From: an uncultured virus (IMG/VR IMGVR_UViG_3300020161_002252)
Taxonomy: Duplodnaviria; Heunggongvirae; Uroviricota; Caudoviricetes; Herelleviridae
DNA length: 20,000 nucleotides
Strand: one strand, 5' to 3'
Virus record (IMG/VR): IMGVR_UViG_3300020161_002252
Shown: positions 1 to 13,057 of the stretch, in pieces
How the letters are laid out: every line of letters begins with the position of its first letter
Numbering within the stretch: the stretch's first letter is position 1
Notes under the pieces: model-generated
The model's database searches: none
What the model was told of the DNA's origin: nothing
What the model saw: the letters and a program-made list of their open reading frames with translations, nothing else
Position numbers and translations under genes: made by a program

Positions 1-1007
1 CCTTTCTGGGTTTTCTTTTTTGCTTGTTCCATGAGTAAAGAAGCAATATGTTCTAATTCTTCATTGCTACAATTAGAGAAGTGATCTTTTAACATATCCT
101 TCAAGCTGGATTTTGTGATCATCTTCTTCTTAGTTTCTTTTTGCCCATAAGTCGCACTAGAAAGCTTTTTATCGATACTTTGTTGAACTAATGCACTTAG
201 AGAAGCGTCCGCATCTGGTATCGCTGGTTCTTGGTATCCCATAGATGCATTCATGGATCTAGCAATCAATTCTAAATTTGTATTTGGGTTGACTGGTGCG
301 CTTGTTACCGCAACATTTAGAACCTTAGCTTTTAGTACGCGTTTCTTATTCTGGGGATCTCTCATTTGTACCACACCTTCAATAGAAAACCCAAGATTAC
401 GATTAGCATTAGCCTTCTTAATTGCTACCGCGGTATCATAGCACTCTTTAGCCAAGGGTTTAGCTAGGTACAAAACACCTTCTACGCGGGTTCTATGATC
501 GTCTAGGCGTTCAATCTTAGTAGGATGCCCTAATACCGCTTCGGGACCTGGTCTATGTTCATGATTGAACCATCCGGAACTAAGGAAGTAATCCCAATCA
601 AGCCCGCTTTGATCAATGGTTTCCCCTTCGCGGTCTTGATCATCAGTGGATACAATACCCGCAATGTAGCCAACGCCATCAGCATTGTTATTGCCATTAG
701 GATCATCGCCAGGTTTATCACCCTTTTCAATAAGATCCATAGGAATCCACTTGGCAAAATAAGAACCCTTGTTCAATGCTTCTTCAATATCAGCTTTGAA
801 ATCGTGATCTTCCAACCACTTTTTAAATTCGCTTACGGTGAACTTGTTTTTATCTGCTCGGATGCTTTGAATCTGGGAATCCCCACCATCTTTTAAGCCC
901 AAGATTACACTCAACCCCTCTGGGAAGCCCTTGGGTGTGAATCTTCTAAAATCACTAAATGCGCTAGGGTCTACTTGTCGCGCTGCGTGTTCATTTGCAA
1001 AAGGCAT
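1..1007 (-). CDS. Prohead (capsid maturation) protease, HK97/SPO1-type serine protease, with extra ~75-aa N-terminal domain; 3' end lies beyond the window
   Basis: Hand translation from ATG at 1007 (RBS AGGAG) is open for 335 codons to the edge: MPFANEHAARQVDP...YIAGIVSTDDQDREGETIDQSGLDWDYFLSSGWFNHEH...LGFSIEG...NVAVTSAPVNPNT. The NHEH (His) and GFSIEG (Ser) motifs match phage prohead proteases. Absent from the ORF track. Confidence 0.92.
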   Translation of the reverse strand, partial: MPFANEHAARQVDPSAFSDFRRFTPKGFPEGLSVILGLKDGGDSQIQSIRADKNKFTVSEFKKWLEDHDFKADIEEALNKGSYFAKWIPMDLIEKGDKPGDDPNGNNNADGVGYIAGIVSTDDQDREGETIDQSGLDWDYFLSSGWFNHEHRPGPEAVLGHPTKIERLDDHRTRVEGVLYLAKPLAKECYDTAVAIKKANANRNLGFSIEGVVQMRDPQNKKRVLKAKVLNVAVTSAPVNPNTNLELIARSMNASMGYQEPAIPDADASLSALVQQSIDKKLSSATYGQKETKKKMITKSSLKDMLKDHFSNCSNEELEHIASLLMEQAKKKTQK

Positions 1008-1052
1008 TTATTTTACTCCTGTTTCTTTGGTTACTGGTTACTTATCAAAATA

Positions 1053-2849
1053 TTATACGATCACTTGAGAACCTTGGCCACCATCAACGCCAAAAAATGA
1101 CATTTTAAGCTTTGGATCAGAAGCAATTCTTATTGTATCTCCCCCTGTTGATAGAATACCTTGTAATGCTTCGGTAGATATGAATCTTGAGAATGATAAC
1201 CCATCTTTATTTGTTACTGGGATTTTCCCTAATGAGTAAATATAATTCTTTGGATCTTTAGAATCGCTTTGTTTAATATTTGGTGATAAATCAACAGAGA
1301 TAGTATCGTTTTCAATTTTTAATACTGCAAAAGGGTGTGTTTTTGTTTGTATTTTTAATATGTTTGTTTTCAAGTCTGAAGGAATTTTAAAGGGTTGTTC
1401 TTTTGATACGGTATTATGTAATTCTTTTACGCGCTTCAATTTAAAAGCACTATCTTCTGTTTTAAGTGCGTTAGATGCTATATGTTCTGGAAGAATAGAA
1501 ACACCTTGATCATTTGAAACATCTAATTTATTACCATTTTGTTTTATTGTTACTTTATCTTGAGAAAGAATTTTTGATAGATTTTCTGAGGATAGTTGAA
1601 AAGGCTTTGTATCTGGATCTATTTTAATATTTGAAGGTACTTTTTGTTCCATGTAGCCCTTATTTGTTAAAGTATAGAAAGAACCATCATTATAAAAAAT
1701 ATGAGTTCTAGCAAGATATTCAGCTGTAGGTTCTCTATCCCCTTTTGAATACATGCTGGATTGTTCCGATAAAGTATCAAAAATATTGCTTAATAATTTG
1801 TCATTATTTTTCATTTTAAAAGCATTTTTAGATAGGCTTATTTGTGGATTATTTAGAATATCTTCAAAAATAGTATCTACTTTTTGACTACTAAAATCTT
1901 TAATTTCTTTTTCAATTGTTTCGTTATCTGCCGTATTTTCTCTAATCCTTTTAAAAATAGAGTCCCAAATAACTGGTATTTCTTTAGATTGTCGTGCTTT
2001 TGCTGTTACAATGCTAACAAGATTCTCATATTTATAATGCTTATCAAACAAAATGTTACTTAATGGATGATTCGCAACTTCCTTTATATGCCTATTTTCA
2101 TAATATTTAGCATCATTATAAAAAGGAAAAATACTTTGCATTTGTTTATCTGATAATTCCAGTGTATCTACATTGAAAATATCATCAAATGGGAATCCAT
2201 TTTGTTCGCCAAATGTATATATCTTTTTAAGCCTCATTAATAAGCTATCAATATACCCTGATGATTGTTGAATATCGCGATCAATTTGTTTTTTAACCAA
2301 GGAAACAATTTCTTCTTTAGATTTACCTTCAAAAATACCAGTAGGTTTTGGCGCTTGTGGCGCTTCTGGTTTCTTTTTCAAAGAGTCAAGCTTGTTTACT
2401 TGAGCTTTCAATTTATCAAGAGTAGAATCTTTAACTTTATGCCCTTTTTCTTTCATTTGTTGGAAAGTGGCTAATTGCTTCTTTGCTCGTTCATGTGATC
2501 GTTCTATGCTGGTAGCATGTTCTTTGTGGATTCTATTTTGAAACTCAAGTTTAGATAGTGTTTCTTTTTGTCCTTTTTTATCCCCATCATCGTATTCAAT
2601 TGTAAGTTTATCACCATCAACGGATTTAATATGCGCATGGTACTTATTATCACCTTCACCAAATGAAAAAGAAGCATCCTTCACAAGTTCAGACTCGTGA
2701 CCTAACCCTTTACCGTGTCCTGCTTGTTCTTGGTAGTAATATTTATACTTTGTTTTACCTGTTTTTGTTCCCCCAATTGGTACACGTCTTACATATTTAT
2801 GTGTTCTTGCCTTGAGTAGATCAAGGATCACTTTGTAAAATGAAAACAT
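1053..2849 (-). CDS. Putative internal head/cargo protein A (598 aa): shared N-terminal module plus unique C-terminus with possible sliding-clamp-like fold
   Basis: RBS AGGAAAATAACA-ATG; first ~157 aa are ~88% identical to 4433-5728; located between MuF and the protease. Confidence 0.7.
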   Translation of the reverse strand: MFSFYKVILDLLKARTHKYVRRVPIGGTKTGKTKYKYYYQEQAGHGKGLGHESELVKDASFSFGEGDNKYHAHIKSVDGDKLTIEYDDGDKKGQKETLSKLEFQNRIHKEHATSIERSHERAKKQLATFQQMKEKGHKVKDSTLDKLKAQVNKLDSLKKKPEAPQAPKPTGIFEGKSKEEIVSLVKKQIDRDIQQSSGYIDSLLMRLKKIYTFGEQNGFPFDDIFNVDTLELSDKQMQSIFPFYNDAKYYENRHIKEVANHPLSNILFDKHYKYENLVSIVTAKARQSKEIPVIWDSIFKRIRENTADNETIEKEIKDFSSQKVDTIFEDILNNPQISLSKNAFKMKNNDKLLSNIFDTLSEQSSMYSKGDREPTAEYLARTHIFYNDGSFYTLTNKGYMEQKVPSNIKIDPDTKPFQLSSENLSKILSQDKVTIKQNGNKLDVSNDQGVSILPEHIASNALKTEDSAFKLKRVKELHNTVSKEQPFKIPSDLKTNILKIQTKTHPFAVLKIENDTISVDLSPNIKQSDSKDPKNYIYSLGKIPVTNKDGLSFSRFISTEALQGILSTGGDTIRIASDPKLKMSFFGVDGGQGSQVIV

Positions 2850-2861
2850 TGTTATTTTCCT
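2380..2861. repeat. Direct repeat copy 1 (~480 bp, includes RBS and 5' coding region)
   Basis: Ungapped match to 5259-5740 (offset 2879), with mostly synonymous or conservative substitutions. Confidence 0.95.
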
Positions 2862-2895
2862 TTCTTTGTTTTCTTAGTTATACTATTTTTATTAT

Positions 2896-4356
2896 TTAAT
2901 TTTTAGTTTTTAAATGATCCGCCCATAAATCCGCGTCCGCCGTTCTTCTAGTCTTTCCACCCGTCAAAAATGAATAAACGCGCGCTCTTGCCCATGCTAT
3001 TTGTGTTGCTCCTGGTCTATGCCCGCTTGTTGCCCAAGCTTCAGCCCCGCGCTTGTGTACTTCGCTTATAATGCGCTTTGAAACGCCTGTTAATTGAGAA
3101 GCTACTTTGATAAATTCTTGGGTTGTATTTCCCTTAGTTTTTTCTCTTACTGCACTGGCTAAACTGGTTCTTGAATACTTGGAAGGTTTTGTTTTGGTAT
3201 CATCACCCACCAAAGGTTTATACTTATCCTTAGCTTTGATCTTGCCTTGTTTGCGTTGTTCTATTTGTTTTGTTCTCTTCTCTTTTTCATCTGGTTCTAG
3301 TCCTCTTAGATACTTGCTAGGAATTGATTTTGTGATTGTTTCCTTGAGCATTCGCCCTTGTTTTGTAACGATAAAACCCCGTGGAATAGGTAGCGTATCG
3401 CATCTACAATTAGGATGCACTGGGAATAAGGTTGGCAATATGTTTTCTTTGGATCGCCCAACATTTACACCATTAGCAATTAATTGATCTGGTTCAAATA
3501 GCACTAGGTTTTCACCGTCTACAAATAACGATAAACAAATATCACAAGCGCTAGTATTTGGGAATCTGGCAACCAATGAATCTTGATCTATTGCATCCAA
3601 TAAGCGCCCTTCGTTATATGCTGCTTGTAACTCGGTTCTTGCGATTCTATCCCAATTTCTAGAATAGTCCTTAGTGATATCCGCCAATCTGGAAGCTAAG
3701 GCCTTGTAATCTCTCCCATCTACAATTTCATTCGCTGTTTCTTGCTTGATTGTATCTAGGATAAATTGCCGTTGTTGTTCATTAACTTCTTCTGTAATCT
3801 CAGTCCCTTCCCAACCTTCAGCAATTGCACTATTTAAATCTTCCCCTACTTGGTTACCTAAACCCCTCGCATAAATACCCGCTCTTTGTAATGCGGAACT
3901 ATACGCTTGTTTCTCTGAATCACCCATCCAAGAAGGCAAATTACGCGGGGGTTGTAATGGTTCTCCGTAAATATGTTCATAGCTTGGCGCTGGTGTTTCC
4001 ATAGTGGAATTTTGACCGTCTATCTCTGTTTGTGATGGTTCTAGTGATACAATACTTTTTAAATGTTCTTTGATCACTGGCTCCCATTCACTCAATCCCC
4101 AATCTCTAGCTTCTTTGATTTGTGTATTGTTCATCTCATTCAGCACTTGCCCCATCATAAACAAAAAAGCATAAGGATCTAAACCCGCTATTTGTAAACC
4201 CTTTGTATCTAGTTTCAATGTTCCATTTTGCGCTAAATCCTTAATGCGTTCTGGACTTAACCCGCTATTTTGTATCCCAAATAACTCAATCAAAAATAAA
4301 TCATGTTGATCTTGTACGCTTTGCAACGCTTGATCTTGTAACTCTTGTTTTTTCAT
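2896..4356 (-). CDS. MuF/SPP1 gp7-like minor head protein with C-terminal DUF5824-like extension
   Basis: RIARTELQAAYNEG...CDIC...PVHPNCRC is the MuF signature; C-terminal RGAEAWATSGHRPGATQIAWARARVYSFLTGGKTRRTADADLW; RBS AGGAG. Confidence 0.85.
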   Translation of the reverse strand: MKKQELQDQALQSVQDQHDLFLIELFGIQNSGLSPERIKDLAQNGTLKLDTKGLQIAGLDPYAFLFMMGQVLNEMNNTQIKEARDWGLSEWEPVIKEHLKSIVSLEPSQTEIDGQNSTMETPAPSYEHIYGEPLQPPRNLPSWMGDSEKQAYSSALQRAGIYARGLGNQVGEDLNSAIAEGWEGTEITEEVNEQQRQFILDTIKQETANEIVDGRDYKALASRLADITKDYSRNWDRIARTELQAAYNEGRLLDAIDQDSLVARFPNTSACDICLSLFVDGENLVLFEPDQLIANGVNVGRSKENILPTLFPVHPNCRCDTLPIPRGFIVTKQGRMLKETITKSIPSKYLRGLEPDEKEKRTKQIEQRKQGKIKAKDKYKPLVGDDTKTKPSKYSRTSLASAVREKTKGNTTQEFIKVASQLTGVSKRIISEVHKRGAEAWATSGHRPGATQIAWARARVYSFLTGGKTRRTADADLWADHLKTKN

Positions 4357-4375
4357 ACTATGCTCCTATTTTGCA

Positions 4376-4387
4376 TAGTATATCATA
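4376..4387 (-). promoter_or_regulatory. Possible extended -10 promoter element upstream of the MuF-like gene
   Basis: Minus strand reads TGATATACT (TGnTATACT) ~20 nt upstream of the ATG; no clear -35. Confidence 0.3.
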
Positions 4388-4432
4388 TATTAGTTAGTTC
4401 CGAATAACCTAAGATATTTATCACTTTGATTC

Positions 4433-5728
4433 TTATTGTCTTGAAACTGGTGCTTTGTACTTGTAATATGATAAACCTCGGCTACCTTCCTTCTTTCGGT
4501 CCCATCTGAATCCTAATCGCCAAAGTTTATCTTTATCTTTGAAATCACCTTCAACATATAAATATAAATTATCTGGATTCCTGCCTTCCATATCATCATC
4601 ATCAATCTCTGTTCCTACGCTACCATCTTCAAAAATATACGAATCGTAACCTTGATATCTTGAATTGTTATAGCGTTGAATGTAATCGTGTTGTGACTCA
4701 GTTAATTGTTTTGGCTTAGATTCTATGTTTTCATCTTGTGTAAATGTATCTTTTAAAAATTGTTTTGCCTTCTCAGTTCCAAGCTTCTGGATAAAATAGA
4801 ATGGGATTTGATATTGTAGCCCGCTTCCATGCTTATCAAAATTCAAAACGCCCATAAACTTATCCATTCCTATCGATTGTAACGCGGGTTTAATATGATT
4901 TTTCCAAGTATCCTCATCATACTTCTTTCTTGTGATCACCGCATACATCCCTTTCTCACTTGGATTATTTATTTGTTTATCGATATACTTATAAGCATTC
5001 ATTCCAATAGAATCGGAAGGTAATGTATTTAATTCATCTTTGTATTTATTGTAGTCCCCATCTTCCGAAGATTCGTTGACCTCGTTTACAATATCTTCAA
5101 TTTCTGGCGATCCCATAAAAGGGGCACTTATGAATCTTAGCCCCGCTTTATCTTTATCCCCATGACTCAAATCTCTAATAGTTTTAGCAAGAGAACCAAG
5201 CTGCTCAATGGATCTATGATATTGTTCAATATATTCTTCTTGTGCTGGAGTCTTAGCTAAAGAGTTAAGCTTCTCTACTTGAGCTTTCAATTTATCAAGA
5301 GTAGAATCTTTAACTTTTGCACCTGTGGTTTTCATCTTTTCAAAAGTAGCAAGTTGTTTCTTTGCTTTTTCATGAGCTTGTTTGATACTGGTAGCATGTT
5401 CTTTGTGGATTCTATTTTGAAACTCGGTTTTGCTTAGTGTTTCTTTTTGTCCTTTTTTATCCCCATCATCGTACTCAATTGTAAGTTTATCACCGTCAAC
5501 AGATTTAATGTGCGCATGGTATTTATTTTCACCTTCACCAAAAGCAAAAGAAGCATCCTTGACAAGTTCAGACTCATGCCCTAATCCTTTGCCGTGTCCT
5601 GCTTGCTCCTGGTAATAATATTTATATTTTGTACTGCCTGTATGAGTTGCCCCAATTGGTACGCGCCTTACATACTTATGAGTTCTTGCTTTGATCAAAT
5701 CAAGGATTACTTTGTAAAATGAAAACAT
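4433..5728 (-). CDS. Putative internal head/cargo protein B (431 aa): shared N-terminal module plus unique C-terminus ending in a DUF5710-like motif
   Basis: Same RBS and N-terminus as 1053-2849; C-terminal LYLYVEGDFKDKDKLWRLGFRWDRKK. Confidence 0.7.
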   Translation of the reverse strand: MFSFYKVILDLIKARTHKYVRRVPIGATHTGSTKYKYYYQEQAGHGKGLGHESELVKDASFAFGEGENKYHAHIKSVDGDKLTIEYDDGDKKGQKETLSKTEFQNRIHKEHATSIKQAHEKAKKQLATFEKMKTTGAKVKDSTLDKLKAQVEKLNSLAKTPAQEEYIEQYHRSIEQLGSLAKTIRDLSHGDKDKAGLRFISAPFMGSPEIEDIVNEVNESSEDGDYNKYKDELNTLPSDSIGMNAYKYIDKQINNPSEKGMYAVITRKKYDEDTWKNHIKPALQSIGMDKFMGVLNFDKHGSGLQYQIPFYFIQKLGTEKAKQFLKDTFTQDENIESKPKQLTESQHDYIQRYNNSRYQGYDSYIFEDGSVGTEIDDDDMEGRNPDNLYLYVEGDFKDKDKLWRLGFRWDRKKEGSRGLSYYKYKAPVSRQ

Positions 5729-5740
5729 TGTTATTTTCCT
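5259..5740. repeat. Direct repeat copy 2
   Basis: Ungapped match to 2380-2861. Confidence 0.95.
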
Positions 5741-5996
5741 ATCTTGGTTTAGCCTTGTTTAAAACAGTCTTTGAAATCTCATTTAATCGATCAGCATATA
5801 AGCTATTCATCTTATCCGCCAATTCATCAATCACCTTAAATTCTCCGCCCCTATGCTGCTTGTGATCTGCTTTACATAGTTGATCAGCGTAAACGGAAGC
5901 GCTAATATGTTCCGCGTGTTGAGCGATATGCTTGGCTAGTGTATCTAAGTTGAATCTCTTCAATTCTTCATTACTAAGTTCAATATTAATTTTCAT
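5739..5996 (-). CDS. Hypothetical head-module protein (85 aa, MKINIELS...)
   Basis: ATG at 5996 has RBS GAGGA and overlaps the end of the upstream gene; a better start than the ORF-track start at 6017. Confidence 0.75.
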   Translation of the reverse strand: MKINIELSNEELKRFNLDTLAKHIAQHAEHISASVYADQLCKADHKQHRGGEFKVIDELADKMNSLYADRLNEISKTVLNKAKPR

Positions 5997-6759
5997 TCTT
6001 TTGTTCCTCTCTTTCAAACTGGTTGATCATCTTTTTAGCCCAAGTAAAACCTGCATCACCACCCCAAAGAAGCCATGAGATATTAGCTTTGCTGGATTTG
6101 TCTTTGTGAAACTTTTTGTATGCACTATGCCTTGAGAAAAAGGAATACATGCGCTTGATGGTCTGCTTGGATACTCTACCTTGAATCAAATTACTTGCGC
6201 GTTGAACACCGCTACCAATTCCCAATTTACCGGCTTGTTTAGAATCTAAACCACCGTGACCATATTCGCGCCGTAATTCTAGGCCTCTTTGCGCTGCATC
6301 TCTTACACCCTGTGGAACTTCGTAACTATCTCCCCCTTTGGTTAACTTGGTTCTTCGATATATGATATCAACCATCAAGGGAACTAAGCCATATTGAATC
6401 AAATCTTGAATATGCTCAGTTAAATCTTGTTCAGTACTATGCAAAACATGTTCTAGTAATAAGTGCATATTGGCGCTTCTTGTACAATCACGATACACAC
6501 GGCTGGCGAACATCTGAATTACTGGTTTTCTTATGATTCTTTGCTTCATTCTGGCGCGTTCTTCATCGCCCACTTGAGTCAATTGTATATCCATTTGATC
6601 GCAAAGAAAATCGTATTCATTCATGATTGCATCATTGACTATATCAAACACTTGTTTTTCACTTAATATCTTTGGATGATCTGCAATCACTTCTTTTACT
6701 TCGTCAAGTCTGGGGTGCGGGTGCATTAGTGACTTGATTATCTCTTGAAACTTGATCAT
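5986..6759 (-). CDS. Two-domain head-associated protein (257 aa) with C-terminal RMYSFFSRH...ISWLLWGGDAG domain
   Basis: ATG at 6759 preceded by GAGGAAAAGAACA; C-terminal motifs resemble a small domain often seen in phage head-module genes (recalled, not searched). Confidence 0.75.
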   Translation of the reverse strand: MIKFQEIIKSLMHPHPRLDEVKEVIADHPKILSEKQVFDIVNDAIMNEYDFLCDQMDIQLTQVGDEERARMKQRIIRKPVIQMFASRVYRDCTRSANMHLLLEHVLHSTEQDLTEHIQDLIQYGLVPLMVDIIYRRTKLTKGGDSYEVPQGVRDAAQRGLELRREYGHGGLDSKQAGKLGIGSGVQRASNLIQGRVSKQTIKRMYSFFSRHSAYKKFHKDKSSKANISWLLWGGDAGFTWAKKMINQFEREEQKNEN

Positions 6760-6806
6760 TGTTCTTTTCCTCATGAAATGGGTTAAGAACATATTACTAT
6801 ATTTTA

Positions 6807-7316
6807 CTATCTATTTGTGTTTTTAGTTGCCTTGAGGGACTTTCTAATCATTTCAGCATACAAGCCAAAAGAGATACTTTTTACTACTTTTTTCTCTGAA
6901 TAGAATGTTTTTGCATTTGAAATAAAATACCAATCTATAAAAGTTTTGATAAAGGCTTCTAATTCAATAGCATCATCATAATCTAGTGTTTGAATCTGGC
7001 TTAGGAAATACCCATCATTTTGTAGTGATACTTCTTGATTTATTTTGTCACTTACAAACTCGATTAGATCCTCATTAAGATAGTTTTTCTTGACATATTG
7101 AAGCGCTTCTATCTCTTTACTTGGCTTATTCTCATGCAAAGAATACATTGCTATTAGTTCATCACAACGATTAACCAAGTATGAAGAACCCTTTAAACAA
7201 TCAAGTATGATATCTTTAATTTGTTCTTTGGAAATCTTGGTTGGCTTGGATGCTAGAATCATTTTAAGCCTATTATATTTAGATGCGTACGCATTTGATT
7301 TTCTTAATCTGGTCAT
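6807..7316 (-). CDS. Hypothetical protein (169 aa)
   Basis: ORF co-oriented with the head module; no RBS upstream because the foreign block begins just before the ATG. Confidence 0.7.
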   Translation of the reverse strand: MTRLRKSNAYASKYNRLKMILASKPTKISKEQIKDIILDCLKGSSYLVNRCDELIAMYSLHENKPSKEIEALQYVKKNYLNEDLIEFVSDKINQEVSLQNDGYFLSQIQTLDYDDAIELEAFIKTFIDWYFISNAKTFYSEKKVVKSISFGLYAEMIRKSLKATKNTNR

Positions 7317-7319
7317 TTT

Positions 7320-7985
7320 AATAATAATGTTTCACATGCTGTCCGTATGGGTGTTATCTCTCACAGTGGCAAAAAGTACAAAATGACACAATTAGGTAAA
7401 GATATCTTAGCTAATAATTCGCTCTATCCATCTATTTCTAAAGAACAGTTATTGAAGTACTATAGGGTTAACAAGGATGATGGCTCAATACTTTTCCCTT
7501 ATAGGGCAATACTCAAAATCTTTCTTGAAGTCGATTATGTTACAAGATTTGAATTTCTGTATTGCATATATTCTTTATGTGATACTAGTGAAGCATCTAT
7601 TCAGGATGCTATAGAAAGAATAAATTATCTTCGCGCAACATATCCAAATATTAATATTTTAGGTGAAAAAAACAAAGAAAAAGTTCTTGATATTATCAAC
7701 ACTAAGTATGATGTTCAATTTGGTTTCAAAGATATTTGGACCAGCAAAACCACAACATACAACCAGTTCAATTACTTTAAAAAGCATTTATGGGAGTTTA
7801 ATAACATCTTTATCACTACTGAGGAGAAAACAGATAAAGAAAAAATTCGCATTAATCCAGGCGCTCAATCATCTATCAAAGAGTTACTTGATTTGACTAG
7901 TACCATCGAAGTTTTTGCTGCCAGCAAAAATATGAACAAATTAGATGAACTATATGGAAAACGTATTTCAACCATAAACTTATAA
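7320..7985 (+). pseudogene. 5'-truncated probable type IIS restriction endonuclease (winged-helix DNA-recognition portion)
   Basis: Frame is open upstream of ATG 7347 (NNNVSHAVRMGVISHSGKKYKMTQLGKDIL, a wHTH wing pattern) with no RBS; LFPYRAILKIFLEVDYVTRFEF resembles AlwI/BpuJI-like recognition domains; convergent with two MTases; no catalytic motif evident. Confidence 0.5.
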
Positions 7986-8043
7986 TCTTCAAGTTATTAC
8001 AACACATAAAAGGTTCATTAAATTCAAAGTAGAGAGCCTCTTT

Positions 8044-9411
8044 TTATACTTTTTCTAAAACTACAATACTCTCTCGAAGCGAATTCTTTAAGTATGGATA
8101 TAGCTGTATCTGTTGTCCTGACGTTTTGGCAATTCTACAAACAATAATCTCCTTAACTCTAAAATCATAATTTTCTGCAATAGCTCCAAGAAATAAATCT
8201 GTAGGAATAATTCTTCCAAGGTATGCACTCTGATCGACAACAATATAACATTTTTTTCCAGAAATTAAAACACTTGCACTTTCAGCAATTACCTTTTCCA
8301 TGTCAGTAAAGTAACCCTTAATCATTTTAGGTACCTTTCTTGTTCTAGCATCTCTTTTCCCTGTTCTAGATTCTTTTTCAGGAATAGCTGATTCTATTTC
8401 TTCTGACATCCAATTAATAAAATCTCTTATCTCATTTCTTTCATCGGATCTACCAACAAAAGATTCTACTGCCTGTCGTCTATAAGTACTTATACCTTTC
8501 ATATCTGAAGCGTAATCTGCAAGTATTACTTCCATCTTATATGATTCAAAATAGTCAAAAGAATTAGCATATGGAGGTGAATACATTATCGCACCAAGAG
8601 TTTTATCAATGATATTCGAATACTTATTAACTGTTTCCGATAATCGCATTGCATCTCCACAATCAATCGCTGAAACTAAATTTGCAGGTATTCTAGACCT
8701 TTCAATATCTACTATCATTTCTTTGATTTTCTTTAAATAAAATGCTTCTACATTATCAACCCTAGTAGCCACTGTTTTTAAACCATTCCCGTCTCTCTTT
8801 CTATCAGAGACTTCTTCTATAATACAAATATAAGCACAAATCATTAACTCATATATTTTTGTACCAAGTAAATCCTTATTTGTATCTATAACTTGTCTTA
8901 TCGAAACAAGTCGTTCAAAATTATGTTCATTAAAAAACTTTTGGACTTCCTGATATTTATCTTTATATTCATCAAACATATTAGTTTGTTTCATACTTGT
9001 AATAATTTCAGGCAATACAGTTTTAATATGATTTATTTCTTCATTTGTATAACTCCTACATTTAACTTCTGAAATAAAAGCTGACATAGGATTTATATCT
9101 ATTCCTATTCCCGAAAAACCATTTAAAGCAGCCTCTACTACTGTTGTTCCACTTCCACAAAAAGGGTCTAATACATATTCATCTTGTGCCATTCCACATC
9201 TATGAATTAGCTCTTTTATCAAAGTATGAGAAAATCCTTCCCTATATTTAAACCAGCCATGATATTGTATATCCTTATTTTTAGAAAAATTTACAAGTTG
9301 ACTAAAAAAATCGGCTTCATTTCTTATGTTAAATCTGTTCTCTAATCCATAAATGAATGCCTTTAGATTTTTATTCGCATAAATGTTAAATTTATCAATT
9401 GCATTTATCAA
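8044..9411 (-). CDS. Amino-DNA methyltransferase, alpha class, probably N4-cytosine
   Basis: HGWFKYREGFS (motif X), VLDPFCGSGTT (motif I) before SPPY (motif IV); TTG start with RBS GAAGGTG; overlaps upstream MTase by 17 nt. Confidence 0.9.
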   Translation of the reverse strand: MINAIDKFNIYANKNLKAFIYGLENRFNIRNEADFFSQLVNFSKNKDIQYHGWFKYREGFSHTLIKELIHRCGMAQDEYVLDPFCGSGTTVVEAALNGFSGIGIDINPMSAFISEVKCRSYTNEEINHIKTVLPEIITSMKQTNMFDEYKDKYQEVQKFFNEHNFERLVSIRQVIDTNKDLLGTKIYELMICAYICIIEEVSDRKRDGNGLKTVATRVDNVEAFYLKKIKEMIVDIERSRIPANLVSAIDCGDAMRLSETVNKYSNIIDKTLGAIMYSPPYANSFDYFESYKMEVILADYASDMKGISTYRRQAVESFVGRSDERNEIRDFINWMSEEIESAIPEKESRTGKRDARTRKVPKMIKGYFTDMEKVIAESASVLISGKKCYIVVDQSAYLGRIIPTDLFLGAIAENYDFRVKEIIVCRIAKTSGQQIQLYPYLKNSLRESIVVLEKV

Positions 9412-11272
9412 TTTTTACACCTTCTTTCATTATCCATTTGTTTTCTTTTATTTCAAGATTCTGGCTCAATAAATTATCAATAAAGGTCTTTGATAACTCA
9501 TCGATTTTCTCAACTTCATCTTCTTTATTCTGGCATACAAACTTCATTATAATATTAATTAAACTACTATAGATCTTTTCATATAATTCGGTTGTCGTAT
9601 ATTCTTCTTTAATTTGATACATGTTTTTTAGACATTCGTTTACTTTGTTTTTTATCATGTGTTCAAAATTTCCTACCGGAATATCCATCTCTGGAATAGG
9701 GCCTTTTCTAAAGGAATATATAAAATCGCCGTGAATATTGCCAGAATATCTTAAATGCGCTGTATTTTTGTATTCAGAAATGAAATCTTGATAAATCACA
9801 CCATCTTCAGGTAAATAAAATCCTGCATTTAAGACAGCTTTTAACAATTGTACCCAAACATTAATATTTTTATTGTTAAATGTAAATACTAAGAATCCAC
9901 CAGGTTTCAAAACTCTACAAGCCTCGGAATAAACTTCTCTTAACATATTACCATAAAAATCTACATCCTTAGCACCTTCAAAGCACGATTTTCTATTAGC
10001 AACAGCCTCCTCATCATGATAAATGAATTTATCAAGCCCCTTGTATTCCTTATACCATATATTCCAGAATGAAGATAATTCTCCATATTGAACGTTACTA
10101 CCATATGGAGGATCTGTAATAACAGCATCTACACTTGCGTCTGGAATCGGTAAATTAGATGAACTTTGAGTTAATATCAAATAATCTTTTCCATATAGCA
10201 ATTCATCATAACTCGAAGCCTTCATTTTTTTAGAAGACAATGTTTTGTTCGTATACTCAAGGCCTTTAATAATTGCTTCTATTCTATCCTTAAGTTTAAC
10301 AAGTATATTACATTCAACATATTCATTTGGTAACCAATATGCATGTTTATCCATACAAGTAGGATTTCCATTCTCCCAATTCTCAGTTACCCTAGACATT
10401 TTACTTGTATATCTCAATGATGAACTGAATGCAAAATATAATAAATCTCTTTCCTTTGAATCCGGTAGTGACAATATTTTATTAAAAATCATGGTGTTAA
10501 TATAATAATTTTTATCTGAAAACAAATCTGAGAAATTGTATACACCTTTTTGTGGTAAACAATCCTCATACCATCTATCCCAGTTACTAGGTATTGGAAA
10601 ATCAACCGATACTACGCCTTTAAGTATTTCAAAAGTTCCTGTATTGGAAACAATATTCTTTTTTTCTTTTTCATCAAATTCATAAATGCCTTTTTCACCA
10701 TTAGAATTAAAATATTTTATCCTTAGTGGAATACTCTTATAGGGTATGCACTTTGTTCTTGTTACACCTGTTTTTGTGCGATTGTTACTCTGGCATATAG
10801 GATTTAAACATCTATATTTTCCATTTGATACTTTATTTTTTTCGGTAAGTCGAATAATATTTCCACATTCCGCACATTTAACTTCATATACCCATTCCAT
10901 CCATTCTTGTTCGACAGATTTTCCATTTATTTCATATTTATATAAATGTGCAAAGTCTCGTTCACATTCACTAAGAAATGAATGATAATATTCTTTTAGT
11001 AACTTGATATCAACTTGTTGTATTTGCATCTCGGTGATAAATGTAGCAAGTGGATTAATATCAACGCCTACAACTTTTCTATCAAGAGCTAATCCCTCAA
11101 ATACTGTAACTCCGCCTCCACAGAAACAGTCTAGGACTATATCGCCTTTTTTCGTATAATGTTCTACTAATTTTCTAAAAACATTGTAAGGGCGTCTTGC
11201 AAAATATTTATGCATTTGATATTGTGCAGTATGGCTTTGTGCACTAATAGATTCTTTTATTGGTTCGATCAT
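9395..11272 (-). CDS. N6-adenine DNA methyltransferase with Zn ribbon (COG1743-like, alpha order)
   Basis: MHKYFARRP, VLDCFCGGGVT (motif I), CAEC...CLNPIC Zn ribbon, ITDPPYGSNVQYGELS (motif IV), RVLKPGGFLVFTF. Confidence 0.9.
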   Translation of the reverse strand: MIEPIKESISAQSHTAQYQMHKYFARRPYNVFRKLVEHYTKKGDIVLDCFCGGGVTVFEGLALDRKVVGVDINPLATFITEMQIQQVDIKLLKEYYHSFLSECERDFAHLYKYEINGKSVEQEWMEWVYEVKCAECGNIIRLTEKNKVSNGKYRCLNPICQSNNRTKTGVTRTKCIPYKSIPLRIKYFNSNGEKGIYEFDEKEKKNIVSNTGTFEILKGVVSVDFPIPSNWDRWYEDCLPQKGVYNFSDLFSDKNYYINTMIFNKILSLPDSKERDLLYFAFSSSLRYTSKMSRVTENWENGNPTCMDKHAYWLPNEYVECNILVKLKDRIEAIIKGLEYTNKTLSSKKMKASSYDELLYGKDYLILTQSSSNLPIPDASVDAVITDPPYGSNVQYGELSSFWNIWYKEYKGLDKFIYHDEEAVANRKSCFEGAKDVDFYGNMLREVYSEACRVLKPGGFLVFTFNNKNINVWVQLLKAVLNAGFYLPEDGVIYQDFISEYKNTAHLRYSGNIHGDFIYSFRKGPIPEMDIPVGNFEHMIKNKVNECLKNMYQIKEEYTTTELYEKIYSSLINIIMKFVCQNKEDEVEKIDELSKTFIDNLLSQNLEIKENKWIMKEGVKIDKCN

Positions 11273-11440
11273 CTTGTTGTCCTTTGGTTAACTTAGATTA
11301 TGGGGTTTTTAAACATTTTTAATTGAAAGGGATGGATTTTTTATTTATTTTAAGCTAGTTGAAGTGGCAACACTATTGTACAAGATCAAATCATGATACT
11401 TATTTTAGAACTAAAAAGGTAATTATATTCTAGGATTCAA

Positions 11441-13057
11441 TTAAATTTCAATGCTAAATTTATGCTTAGTTGATTTCCCTATCTCTTCTTTGTTTCCTTC
11501 TGTTTCTTGTTCTTGTTGTCCTTGTTGCTCTGGTTCATTGTCTTCTTGCTCTTCATCTTGATCATTGTATTCATCATCTCCTTGATCCCCTTGATCTTGT
11601 TGTCCTTGGTCCTGTTGCGCTTGTTGTGCCATGCTTAAGCTAGTGATATATGCTTGACTTAGTACAATATCCCCGCCTTCAATGGGTTTTAAGTCGTACT
11701 TGGCGCGTATTTCATTGACCGTCATGTAATTGCTTACGCGTTGAATATCACCCGCTAAAACATCTTTCTCAGTATCCAAATCAAGACCCACGAATCTCAG
11801 TTCGTATTTATCTGAGATCTTGGATAGAATGAACATATTGATCCAATTTTGTATACTCCTAAGCAAAGGATACAACCCCTTATCTTTTGAAGCTTGGATT
11901 CTTGCCCCTGGTCCCTGTTGAGTTAAAGCGACTGTTTGTCCTTCTGTACCAAAAACAAACCCAAGTTCAGCGGGATCTATTTGAAACAACGCACAAGCTA
12001 ATTTAGTTAAATACCCTATCCAAGTGGTATAGCCCATCTCTTCCGCGGTCCCACCAATATTAACGCTCTGTAGATCCTCTTTTAGTGTAGCATCTGGATC
12101 TAATTGAACAATAGGCGTTCTCTTTGCTTGTGCTGCCCCGCTTAACATCGCGTATAAATCCCGCTTGAAATTTCTAAATGTTTGGGGTGTCATTTTACTC
12201 TTGAGAACTAAAATACTTGGTGCATGAATGCCATTTACAAAATTACTAGCATTATATGTTTCCGCGTTAACTAAATGGGTTACAACCCTTACAAGCTCCT
12301 CAAGCTCTGGGAATCCATACCCTTTAGCGAAATAGGTGGTTCTTGGCCTTCGGATGCAAAAAGCTAGTTGATCATGTTCAAAATCAGCTACTTTCTTGCC
12401 ATTGATAATCTGGATATATCCAGAAGCTTCCCAATCGCGTCTACCTTCCTTCTTTTCCTCTTCAGTCAAAGCACGGCGCCTAATGGTTGATGCATCCACG
12501 GGCACAAAACCAATAATATCACCCCTTCTATTTTTCATGATCTCAAAACACGCTTGATCATAAGTCAAACTATCGCGTAGGATCATTTTAATAAAAGCTT
12601 CAAAATTGAAAGCGCCGCCAAATCGATAGCCTTCGCCACAGGTTTCAAGCCACCTTGTTAAATCCTGGATTTCTTTTGACTCTTCCGCGCTTGGCTTCTT
12701 GCTTTGGTCTTTTAGTCGGATGATATAACCGGCTTTAAACTGGTCTTCTTGGGGTACGCAAAATTCAGCTATTTGATTGATTCTGGTTTGCAAGATTGCG
12801 CTTATCACGGGTACACGGGAAATGAATTGTAGGATATCATAATCAACGCCAAAAGTTCCCTCGTGCACATTGTCGCGATAAGTATCGGAAGCTGAATAGA
12901 TCGCTACATTTGTAGGGTCGATATCAAATGCTACTGGTTCAACCTTGCCCCCTTCATGCGCAATTTTCAAAGCTTTTTGAATCAAATTTTCACTTTCATC
13001 AGATAATTCCTCTAATGTTTCTTGCATTGCACTTTGATTTCTTCTTATTTGATACAT
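11441..13057 (-). CDS. Phage portal protein (SPO1/Twort-like), with acidic Q/D/E-rich C-terminal tail
   Basis: FIKMILRDSLTYDQACFE...VPVDASTIR...GYGFPELE...CALFQIDPAELGF...TVNEIRAKYDLKPIEGGDIVL; RBS AAGGTG. Confidence 0.93.
   Translation of the reverse strand: MYQIRRNQSAMQETLEELSDESENLIQKALKIAHEGGKVEPVAFDIDPTNVAIYSASDTYRDNVHEGTFGVDYDILQFISRVPVISAILQTRINQIAEFCVPQEDQFKAGYIIRLKDQSKKPSAEESKEIQDLTRWLETCGEGYRFGGAFNFEAFIKMILRDSLTYDQACFEIMKNRRGDIIGFVPVDASTIRRRALTEEEKKEGRRDWEASGYIQIINGKKVADFEHDQLAFCIRRPRTTYFAKGYGFPELEELVRVVTHLVNAETYNASNFVNGIHAPSILVLKSKMTPQTFRNFKRDLYAMLSGAAQAKRTPIVQLDPDATLKEDLQSVNIGGTAEEMGYTTWIGYLTKLACALFQIDPAELGFVFGTEGQTVALTQQGPGARIQASKDKGLYPLLRSIQNWINMFILSKISDKYELRFVGLDLDTEKDVLAGDIQRVSNYMTVNEIRAKYDLKPIEGGDIVLSQAYITSLSMAQQAQQDQGQQDQGDQGDDEYNDQDEEQEDNEPEQQGQQEQETEGNKEEIGKSTKHKFSIEI
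11490..11630 (-). repeat. Low-complexity coding repeat (QQDQG/DQG, E/Q-rich) in portal tail
   Basis: AQQAQQDQGQQDQGDQGDDEYNDQDEEQEDNEPEQQGQQEQE. Confidence 0.8.

Follow-up and report, generated by a model that had tools for sequence, protein, structure and literature searches.

The 20,000-nucleotide stretch analyzed here (the window) belongs to an uncultured virus classified in the family Herelleviridae (IMG/VR record IMGVR_UViG_3300020161_002252). From its gene content it appears to hold the head-assembly module of a tailed phage, with a Herelleviridae-like portal protein and prohead protease; the scaffold and capsid genes are found in its relatives. The head proteins repeatedly carry the tetrapeptide [LIV]-x-K-[A/S/G] (below, the strict motif), and the evidence presented here makes it likely that this is a real, conserved cleavage code of the prohead protease.

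Head module and relatives

Nearly all genes of the window lie on the minus strand, and Table 1 lists them from high to low coordinates, followed by the motif sites. Inserted between the portal and protease genes are those for a MuF head protein fused to DUF5824, two large paralogues of 598 and 431 amino acids (aa), and three small proteins of 257, 169, and 85 aa. The scaffold and capsid genes fall outside because the window ends inside the protease gene, which both follow in relatives. The order portal-protease-scaffold-capsid is present in the relative L003, and the portal, protease, and capsid protein are homologous to those of Herelleviridae. Relatives were collected by scanning viral contigs with the MuF protein, which gave 80 loci; open reading frames (ORFs) were called in these, and homologues were identified by blastp and aligned. 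They range from 99% identical contigs (L001 and L002) through L003 to L014, with ~50-65% protein identity and the full module, to loci with 30-45% identity. A megablast of the head module against cultured phages returned no match.

Table 1. Genes and motif sites of the head module. "Kept" gives the non-redundant relatives that retain the strict motif at the aligned place; pLDDT, predicted local distance difference test.
Feature	Coordinates	Strand	Kept	Remarks
Portal protein, 538 aa	11441..13057	-		Pfam Phage_portal, phrog_12
Two DNA methyltransferases	9395..11272 and 8044..9411			After portal
212-aa ORF		+		Between methyltransferases and 169-aa protein gene
169-aa protein	6807..7316	-		Apparent truncated copy, N-domain of L003-type 257-aa protein
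257-aa protein	5986..6759	-		9-aa leader, helical N-domain, and WGGD domain; phrog_2859 on aa 159-264, alignment, AlphaFold model; true start Met12 of 268-aa ORF
85-aa protein	5739..5996	-		Two halves; true start Met8 of 92-aa ORF (relatives begin at matching Met)
431-aa paralogue	4433..5728	-		Leader and N-domain like 598-aa paralogue; C-terminal part differs
MuF-DUF5824 protein, 486 aa	2896..4356	-		Pfam Phage_Mu_F 201-321, DUF5824 346-476
598-aa paralogue	1053..2849	-		13-aa leader, conserved N-domain to ~aa 165, variable C-terminal part
Prohead protease, 335 aa	3..1007	-		3' end beyond window; phrog_1028, E 3e-49
IQKA, portal aa 26-29	12971..12982	-	11/11	Candidate removal of 28-aa N-terminus
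VLKS284, portal			0/15	
IGKS, portal aa 526-529	11471..11482	-	8/12	Candidate removal of last 10 aa; after variable acidic linker
LRKS, 169-aa protein aa 4-7	7296..7307	-		Possible end of 6-aa leader; no relative aligns at N-terminus
VVKS, 169-aa protein aa 144-147	6876..6887	-	0/5	VVKS+ISF aligns with FQKS+MSF of L003, at joint before WGGD
IRKS157, 169-aa protein			0/4	
IIKS, 257-aa protein	6730..6741	-	5/5	End of 9-aa leader; relatives MFRF[ST]PL[IVL]KS
LTKG, 257-aa protein	6334..6345	-	2/9	Joint just before WGGD domain
LCKA, 85-aa protein, ORF aa 47-50	5868..5879	-	4/4	Candidate cut between halves; relatives L-[KNS]-K-[AG] before RGGE
LNKA, 85-aa protein, ORF aa 86-89	5751..5762	-	0/4	Probably no site
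LIKA, 431-aa paralogue aa 11-14	5687..5698	-	27/29	Leader end
ITKS, MuF protein aa 341-344	3325..3336	-	7/10	MuF/DUF5824 joint
LLKA, 598-aa paralogue aa 11-14	2808..2819	-	31/33	Leader end; Met-to-Lys distance 13 aa in most relatives
LNKG, protease aa 78-81	765..776	-	4/10	Candidate cut, extra N-terminal domain/protease body; pLDDT<50 at 72-80; short homologues start here
IEKG, protease aa 93-96	720..731	-	16/16	Candidate N-terminal autoprocessing site; low-confidence loop 97-109 follows
IKKA196, protease			4/19	
VLKA224, protease			17/19	
IARS, protease aa 248-251	255..266	-		Arg at P1, core/tail border; relatives IAKS, LRKA, LAKA; within pLDDT<50 region 241-294
ITKS297, protease			0/11	
Protease tail segment aa 251-288	144..257	-		Copies capsid protein's first residues after cut site (sequence match)

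Occurrence, placement, and conservation of the motif

A sequence-only reading of the window had picked out 12 tetrapeptides of this kind, and all 12 are present on the minus strand at the positions claimed. Six further matches had gone unnamed, three of them in the protease (IKKA196, VLKA224, ITKS297), two in the 169-aa protein (VVKS144, IRKS157), and one in the portal (VLKS284). The eight head proteins thus contain 18 strict motif sites against 10.6 expected from composition-preserving shuffles (P = 0.019), while the 16 other ORFs contain 9 against 10.6. Judged by number only, the enrichment is weak. Placement departs from chance much more strongly: 10 of the 18 sites lie in leader, tail, or domain-border zones versus 2.9 expected (P ~ 1e-4), the zones having been set post hoc as the first 30 aa, the last ~15 aa of the portal, and ~±10 aa around domain borders (from Pfam, PHROGs, and homologue ends), together 11.6% of residues.

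Conservation was scored as the presence of the strict motif within three residues of the aligned place in non-redundant relatives, rows >90% identical to the window or to each other being dropped (Table 1). Conservation of at least 70% was found for 8 of the 17 alignable motif sites, compared with 9 of 105 sites of 11 control motifs of like degeneracy. Nine of the 12 originally named sites are conserved under the strict motif, their flanks varying, and a tenth, LTKG, is conserved only if Phe or Met is admitted at P3 (the Lys being P1); LNKA of the 85-aa protein is not conserved. Both LTKG and VVKS144 fail the strict test because their relatives have Phe or Met at P3 (FQKS, MQKS, MKKG).

These results bear on the simplest alternative, in which a loose motif in Lys-rich proteins was selectively picked and is conserved only via homology. 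Such a combination of chance and shared ancestry would fit the small count excess in the window, the six matches initially passed over, the nonconserved LNKA, and LRKS of the 169-aa protein, which lacks an aligned relative. It is at odds with the rarity of conservation among the control motifs and, as described next, with the distribution of the motif across protein families.

Kayvirus capsid cleavage site and family-wide motif pattern

The sequence-only reading had started from the premise that capsid precursors of Twort/A511-like phages are processed at Lys-Ser sites. In kayviruses the capsid chain (PDB 9row, 9rox, 9roz) comprises 439 residues, the first being Ser25 of the 463-residue precursor, right behind VVK24, and LP-124, an A511 relative, has ALK23 followed by S24 at the homologous place. 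Loessner and Scherer reportedly placed the A511 site between Lys23 and Ser24 in 1995. The L003 capsid protein is 20-29% identical to Herelleviridae capsid proteins over ~95% of its length, and in 20 of 22 distinct capsid N-termini of the clade, L-[RQ]-K-[SAG] immediately precedes the homologous GYQT/GYGIT segment, the remaining two having LNKA three residues upstream. The kayvirus cut after VVK24 thus bears out the premise, and a homologous capsid site is present in the clade of the window.

The strict motif was then counted in non-redundant members of each family and compared with shuffles. It is enriched ~7-fold in scaffolds (42 versus 6.0 expected, 9 sequences) and ~4-fold in proteases (69 versus 16.4, 17 sequences); counts were 31 versus 15.5 in portals (14 sequences) and 51 versus 34.4 in MuF proteins (38 sequences). 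In four downstream neck/tail proteins (7-11 sequences each) 20 sites were found versus 22.3 expected, and the capsid protein beyond residue 40, i.e., the mature protein, is depleted (4 versus 14.8, 13 sequences). Ten control motifs reached 0-1.9 times expectation in scaffolds and 0.3-1.5 times in proteases. Within scaffolds, hydrophobic-x-Lys is followed by Ala, Ser, or Gly 42 times, by Leu, Ile, or Val twice, and by acidic or amide residues never. A head-protease recognition site would be expected to abound in the scaffold, which has to be broken down, to occur at the capsid leader, and to be scarce in the shell, and the motif shows this distribution. The PDB holds no structure of the phage 812 scaffold.

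Scaffold and protease enrichment is specific to this motif among the 11 tried, and the motif stays at the same joints despite domain shuffling and in lineages whose proteins are only 20-40% identical. The family enrichment and the control-motif conservation already largely refute an explanation by chance and shared ancestry, which we regard as very unlikely.

The prohead protease and its own candidate sites

The window's protease comprises an extra N-terminal domain (aa 1-80), a short strand segment (81-95), a catalytic core (~96-247), and a C-terminal tail. The core is 34-38% identical to SPO1/Twort/A511-type (Herelleviridae) proteases. Pfam Peptidase_S78 matches the window protein with an E value of 0.011 and 16.3 bits, below the gathering cut-off of 21 bits; across the clade, 12 of 16 proteases reach E<=0.1, the best of them 6.2e-5. 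In a Foldseek search with the protease model, the top matches were T4 gp21 chains (5jbl; E 1.6e-4, probability 1.00, template modeling score normalized by target 0.62), followed by weaker matches to herpesvirus proteases; searches of the PDB with the protease as a single sequence and as a profile gave nothing useful. H151 and S208, the latter in G-F-S-x-E-G, are invariant in 16 sequences and are presumably catalytic. Taken together, these matches classify the protein as a putative divergent HK97/S78-type serine protease close to the Twort/A511-like enzymes.

Two of the proposed sites, LNKG and IEKG, were said to lie between the protease's N-terminal domain and its core, as they do in this layout. 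IEKG is retained in every relative compared; LNKG lies in a low-confidence stretch of the model and is less strictly kept, with TRKS/TKKG (Thr at P3) in L053 and L023. At the other end of the core, IARS occupies the position of Lys-containing motifs in relatives. The nonconserved IKKA falls in a helix of the model.

Behind IARS, the tail segment is 49% identical over 41 aa to residues 30-70 of the L003 capsid protein (E 1e-6). In phage 812, protease residues 159-206 likewise match capsid protein residues 19-64 (E 1e-6). This resemblance suggests that the protease may enter the procapsid by mimicking the capsid N-arm. The observation covers the window, L003 (11834..13264), and L081.

The extra N-terminal domain (768..1007, starting MPFANEHAARQ) occurs only on the proteases of the window, the L003 group, L053, and L023, and has no family match; the protease of most relatives starts ~15-20 residues before the IEKG-type site.

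The sites might instead be cut by another enzyme, either a host trypsin-like protease or a second phage peptidase encoded outside the window. Many serine proteases of cells are specific for Lys at P1, and the window shows only part of the genome. The motif, however, travels with the protease family across the hosts Staphylococcus, Listeria, and Chryseobacterium, it marks the termini of the protease itself in 16 of 16 relatives, and searches of Pfam, PHROGs, and NCBIfam revealed no other peptidase domain in the head-module proteins, MuF and cargo proteins included. We therefore consider cleavage by a different enzyme highly improbable, and the phage's own prohead protease the likely agent.

Leaders, domain joints, and portal ends

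Short leaders ending in the head-protease consensus, a hallmark of the T4 system, are found in the window: 13 aa in each of the two paralogues, 9 aa in the 257-aa protein, and, possibly, 6 aa in the 169-aa protein (Table 1).

At the domain joints, the motif coincides with the places where stand-alone domains begin or end. ITKS had been described as falling exactly between MuF and its extra domain. In line with this, MuF proteins without DUF5824 end within ~8 residues of the ITKS spot in at least 21 relatives, and the joint reads [ILV]-[TNSY]-K-A in each of the 12 distinct relatives whose MuF carries the DUF5824 fusion. In distant giant MuF proteins (L063-L080) the corresponding sequence is [DE]-[EA]-K-A, without a hydrophobic P3, and no protease of this type was found in the locus.

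LTKG had been assigned to the border before the WGGD domain, and this placement is corroborated by the AlphaFold model of the 257-aa protein, where pLDDT falls below 50 only in the first five residues and at residues 140-142, on LTKG itself. In the protease-bearing clade, by manual reading, every WGGD domain inspected begins ~3-15 aa downstream of [LIVFM]-x-K-[GS], for example LIKG (L021), LEKG (L040, L042, L043), LKKS (L050), and LVKS (L048), and in L016 a stand-alone WGGD domain follows an eight-residue leader, MSYSEILK, before Ser. In L017 (2024..4510) the portal continues at its C-terminus into a WGGD domain, a DUF5824-like part, and a part resembling the second half of the 85-aa protein (the last two assigned by eye), with IEKG, LNKA, AEKS, and LKKA at the joints. 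Stretches similar to this second half are fused in L017 and in L040-L050 (judged by eye), and LCKA is the candidate cut between the two halves.

MuF-DUF5824, the protease, and the 257- and 85-aa proteins accordingly agree with the proposal that head proteins act as polyproteins, but the two large paralogues, which carry a leader only, do not. As to the nature of the released pieces, the cargo sequences gave only subthreshold matches in Pfam and NCBIfam, and the model of the 257-aa protein had no Foldseek match at E<=0.001. In the protein atlas, the WGGD domain corresponds only to unnamed viral clusters of ~105-113 aa.

The portal, 33-39% identical to Herelleviridae portals, carries candidate sites at both ends. 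Its IGKS lies ~11-18 aa before the conserved C-end in relatives. The portal chains of phage 812 in the PDB are full length and uninformative on trimming.

The same motif in cultured phages and comparison with known systems

In T4 and the phiKZ-like giant phages, short-consensus head proteases also process packaged internal proteins, cutting after Glu. For the far more widespread HK97/SPO1-type proteases, the only cut after Lys we know of is that of the capsid protein, and in Herelleviridae-type heads the capsid cut is, to our knowledge, the only one documented.

The motif nevertheless recurs outside the clade. In phage 812, the portal contains LTKS46, the protease has LKKS at its residue 14 and LSKS ahead of the capsid-like segment of its tail, and a 316-aa protein encoded between the protease and capsid genes has seven matches to a relaxed motif. 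LP-124 is similar, with ISKA39 in the portal and LEKS in the protease. These Herelleviridae (812/K and A511-like) resemble the window in having a homologous protease, capsid protein, and portal, a capsid leader cut at Lys before Ser, and the same motif at the protease and portal N-termini and repeated in the scaffold; they differ in that portal, protease, scaffold, and capsid genes follow one another without MuF or intervening cargo genes. Chryseobacterium phage MA9V-3 (PV245944.1) carries LEKA42 and FTKS541 in the portal, LQKA24 in the capsid protein, and FEKG13 plus 21 relaxed-motif matches in a 532-aa protease-scaffold fusion, and its proteins encoded between portal and MuF start with MSDDLIKA or have IAKS, LEKS, or LVKS near the N-terminus. 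MA9V-3 is an independent cultured lineage with the same motif layout and a practical test system. Its portal, MuF, capsid, and protease-scaffold homologues (L083, record 84000..103203) are all annotated as hypothetical.

HK97 gp4 (MEROPS S78/PF04586) belongs to the same Pfam family, matched here with a weak score. In HK97, too, the capsid protein is cut after Lys before Ser, and a tail on the protease places the enzyme in the procapsid. Unlike the system described here, HK97 cleaves off a long delta domain and lacks separate scaffold and cargo proteins.

The arrangement also resembles that of T4, in which short leaders end in the consensus of the gp21 protease, I/L-x-E (PMC12991175), the same consensus occurs in scaffold, capsid leader, and protease, and the enzyme has an assemblin-like fold. 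In the window, P1 is Lys rather than Glu, the protease is S78-like rather than S77, the portal also has candidate sites, and targeting by the leader is proposed by analogy. A T4-like control motif, [LIV]-x-E-[ASG], is not enriched (1.4 times expectation in scaffolds, 0.8 in proteases). Because of the Lys at P1 and the lack of x-E enrichment, the system may be said to work like that of T4 without being a member of it.

For the giant phage SPN3US, PMC10052503 gives an A-x-E consensus for gp245 and the removal of a portal propeptide and a C-terminal protease propeptide. As proposed for the window, giant phages (SPN3US, phiKZ) process numerous head and ejected proteins at a single short consensus that favors Ser at P1'; they differ in the A-x-E sequence, in mostly long propeptides (111-254 aa), and in a much larger protease/capsid lineage of the T4 type.

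The fusions themselves recall the polyvalent proteins of Iyer et al. (2017; PMC5512222), who describe MuF and portal proteins fused to domains thought to be packaged and injected and propose their processing by peptidases. MuF-DUF5824 of the window and the L017 portal with its WGGD, DUF5824-like, and 85-aa-like parts are likewise fusions with further domains in a virion gene context. In that paper, cutting of polyvalent proteins is proposed to be mainly by a built-in metallopeptidase or by C-terminal assemblin-like peptidases, whereas the window's fusions contain no peptidase and their joints bear the consensus of a separate prohead protease. In the literature searched, which left most subscription journals outside, no paper was found that states an [LIV]-x-K-[ASG] consensus for this protease type, cut after the Lys, or its use on leaders, joints, or cargo.

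Proposed processing and its alternatives

What the data show directly is the motif with its placement and conservation, its enrichment and depletion across protein families, the family of the protease, and the homology to a solved kayvirus cut; the cutting itself, the enzyme responsible, packaging, and any function of the cargo are inferred from these. In the pathway proposed, the phage's own protease would cut after Lys in [LIV]-x-K-[S/A/G], sometimes with Phe, Met, Ala, or Thr at P3, wherever the motif sits in a flexible stretch. The 257-aa protein, both paralogues, and perhaps the 169-aa protein would lose leaders of 6-13 residues. MuF would be separated from DUF5824 and the helical N-domain from the WGGD domain, the 85-aa protein would be split into its halves, and the portal would lose its first 28 and last 10 residues. 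The protease would process itself, shedding its N-terminal domain at K80, cutting a second time at K95, and releasing its tail at R250. In relatives, the same code would remove a capsid leader of 21-29 residues and shred the scaffold. If T4 is a guide, the short leaders probably serve in addition to bring proteins into the procapsid, and the trimmed pieces would stay in the head as internal or ejected cargo.

Several observations weigh against this interpretation. As a tetrapeptide the motif is loosely defined, and its numerical excess within the window is weak (P = 0.019). The position zones were drawn post hoc, the two paralogues are not independent of one another, and relatives are linked by descent, so that counts across them are not independent either. 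P3 varies (Phe, Met, Ala, Thr), and P1 is Arg at one site of the window. VLKA224 is kept in 17 of 19 relatives yet lies in a beta-strand of the protease core; conservation alone is hence no proof of cutting. In the paralogues, the residues right after the leader (HKY.RR.P) are conserved at least as well as the motif, and the motif could thus be part of a folded or binding element. Finally, across the paralogue family the protein bodies hold 59 motif sites versus 54.6 expected and so show no depletion; either the tetrapeptide is not enough for recognition, or the sites are shielded by folding. The window's own paralogues and MuF protein have no sites beyond the candidate ones, versus ~5.9 expected over the whole proteins; depletion in cargo bodies had been considered as added evidence and was dropped in view of the family-wide count.

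The conserved HKY.RR.P block leads to the alternative that leaders and joints are docking peptides, which bind the scaffold, the portal, or the capsid interior and remain attached, Lys-Ala/Ser being conserved for binding. The invariant block makes the paralogue N-terminus look like one functional element, and the copy of the capsid N-arm on the protease tail points to incorporation by mimicry. Docking without cutting would leave unexplained that the motif stands at the capsid site that is cut in kayviruses, that it is concentrated in scaffolds, which must be removed, and depleted in the mature capsid protein, and that it is located where stand-alone domains begin or end. It seems to us unlikely as a substitute for cleavage. 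The two functions are not exclusive, however, since T4 leaders both dock and are cut (PMC10052503).

Cleavage by the prohead protease therefore remains the probable reading, and if it is confirmed, annotators could predict mature ends and capsid cargo from leaders, portal ends, scaffolds, protease termini, and fusion joints. It would also explain the hopping of small domains such as DUF5824 and WGGD between MuF, portal, and stand-alone genes, and would offer a means of getting proteins packaged in capsids of this kind. Since cuts after Lys resemble tryptic ends, they would be invisible in ordinary trypsin-based virion proteomics.

A bolder extension, which we put forward tentatively as a possibility somewhat short of even, is that S78-type phages independently built a T4-like addressing system. 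A 6-13-residue [LIV]-x-K peptide would serve both as ticket to the procapsid and as cut site, domains behind or between motifs (in MuF, portal, and protease) would be loaded and then released in the head, and the protease would load itself by means of its capsid N-arm copy. If true, sequence alone would reveal which proteins are packaged and injected in a very large phage group, mostly uncultured and including the Herelleviridae, and the leader could serve for loading foreign proteins.

Repeats and a putative inserted cassette in the module

The 5' ends of the two paralogue genes share ~490 bases at ~87% nucleotide identity (2380..2871 and 5259..5750). In L001 (5099..5552), what follows the protease gene is the start of a paralogue fused with the end of the 431-aa gene, an arrangement that may reflect recombination at this repeat or an assembly chimera. 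Within the paralogue N-domain (5219..5689), approximately residues 52-82 have weak, subthreshold Pfam matches to SH3/Tudor-like barrels (RimP C-terminal SH3, Agenet); a tblastn search with the N-domain found no match in cultured phages, and the 431-aa paralogue had no match in the protein atlas.

At 26% identity (E 4e-13), the 169-aa protein resembles the N-domain that the 257-aa protein has in its L003-type orthologue, with no significant similarity to the window's own 257-aa protein, and it ends 22 residues after its joint motif. These alignments suggest a second copy that is truncated and may have arrived with an inserted cassette. The 4.6-kb stretch at 6802..11440, which holds its gene, the 212-aa ORF, and the two methyltransferase genes, is absent from L002, where 36 bases stand instead and the flanks are 97-98% identical to the window on either side. 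It thus looks like a methyltransferase cassette inserted in the head module between the portal and cargo genes.

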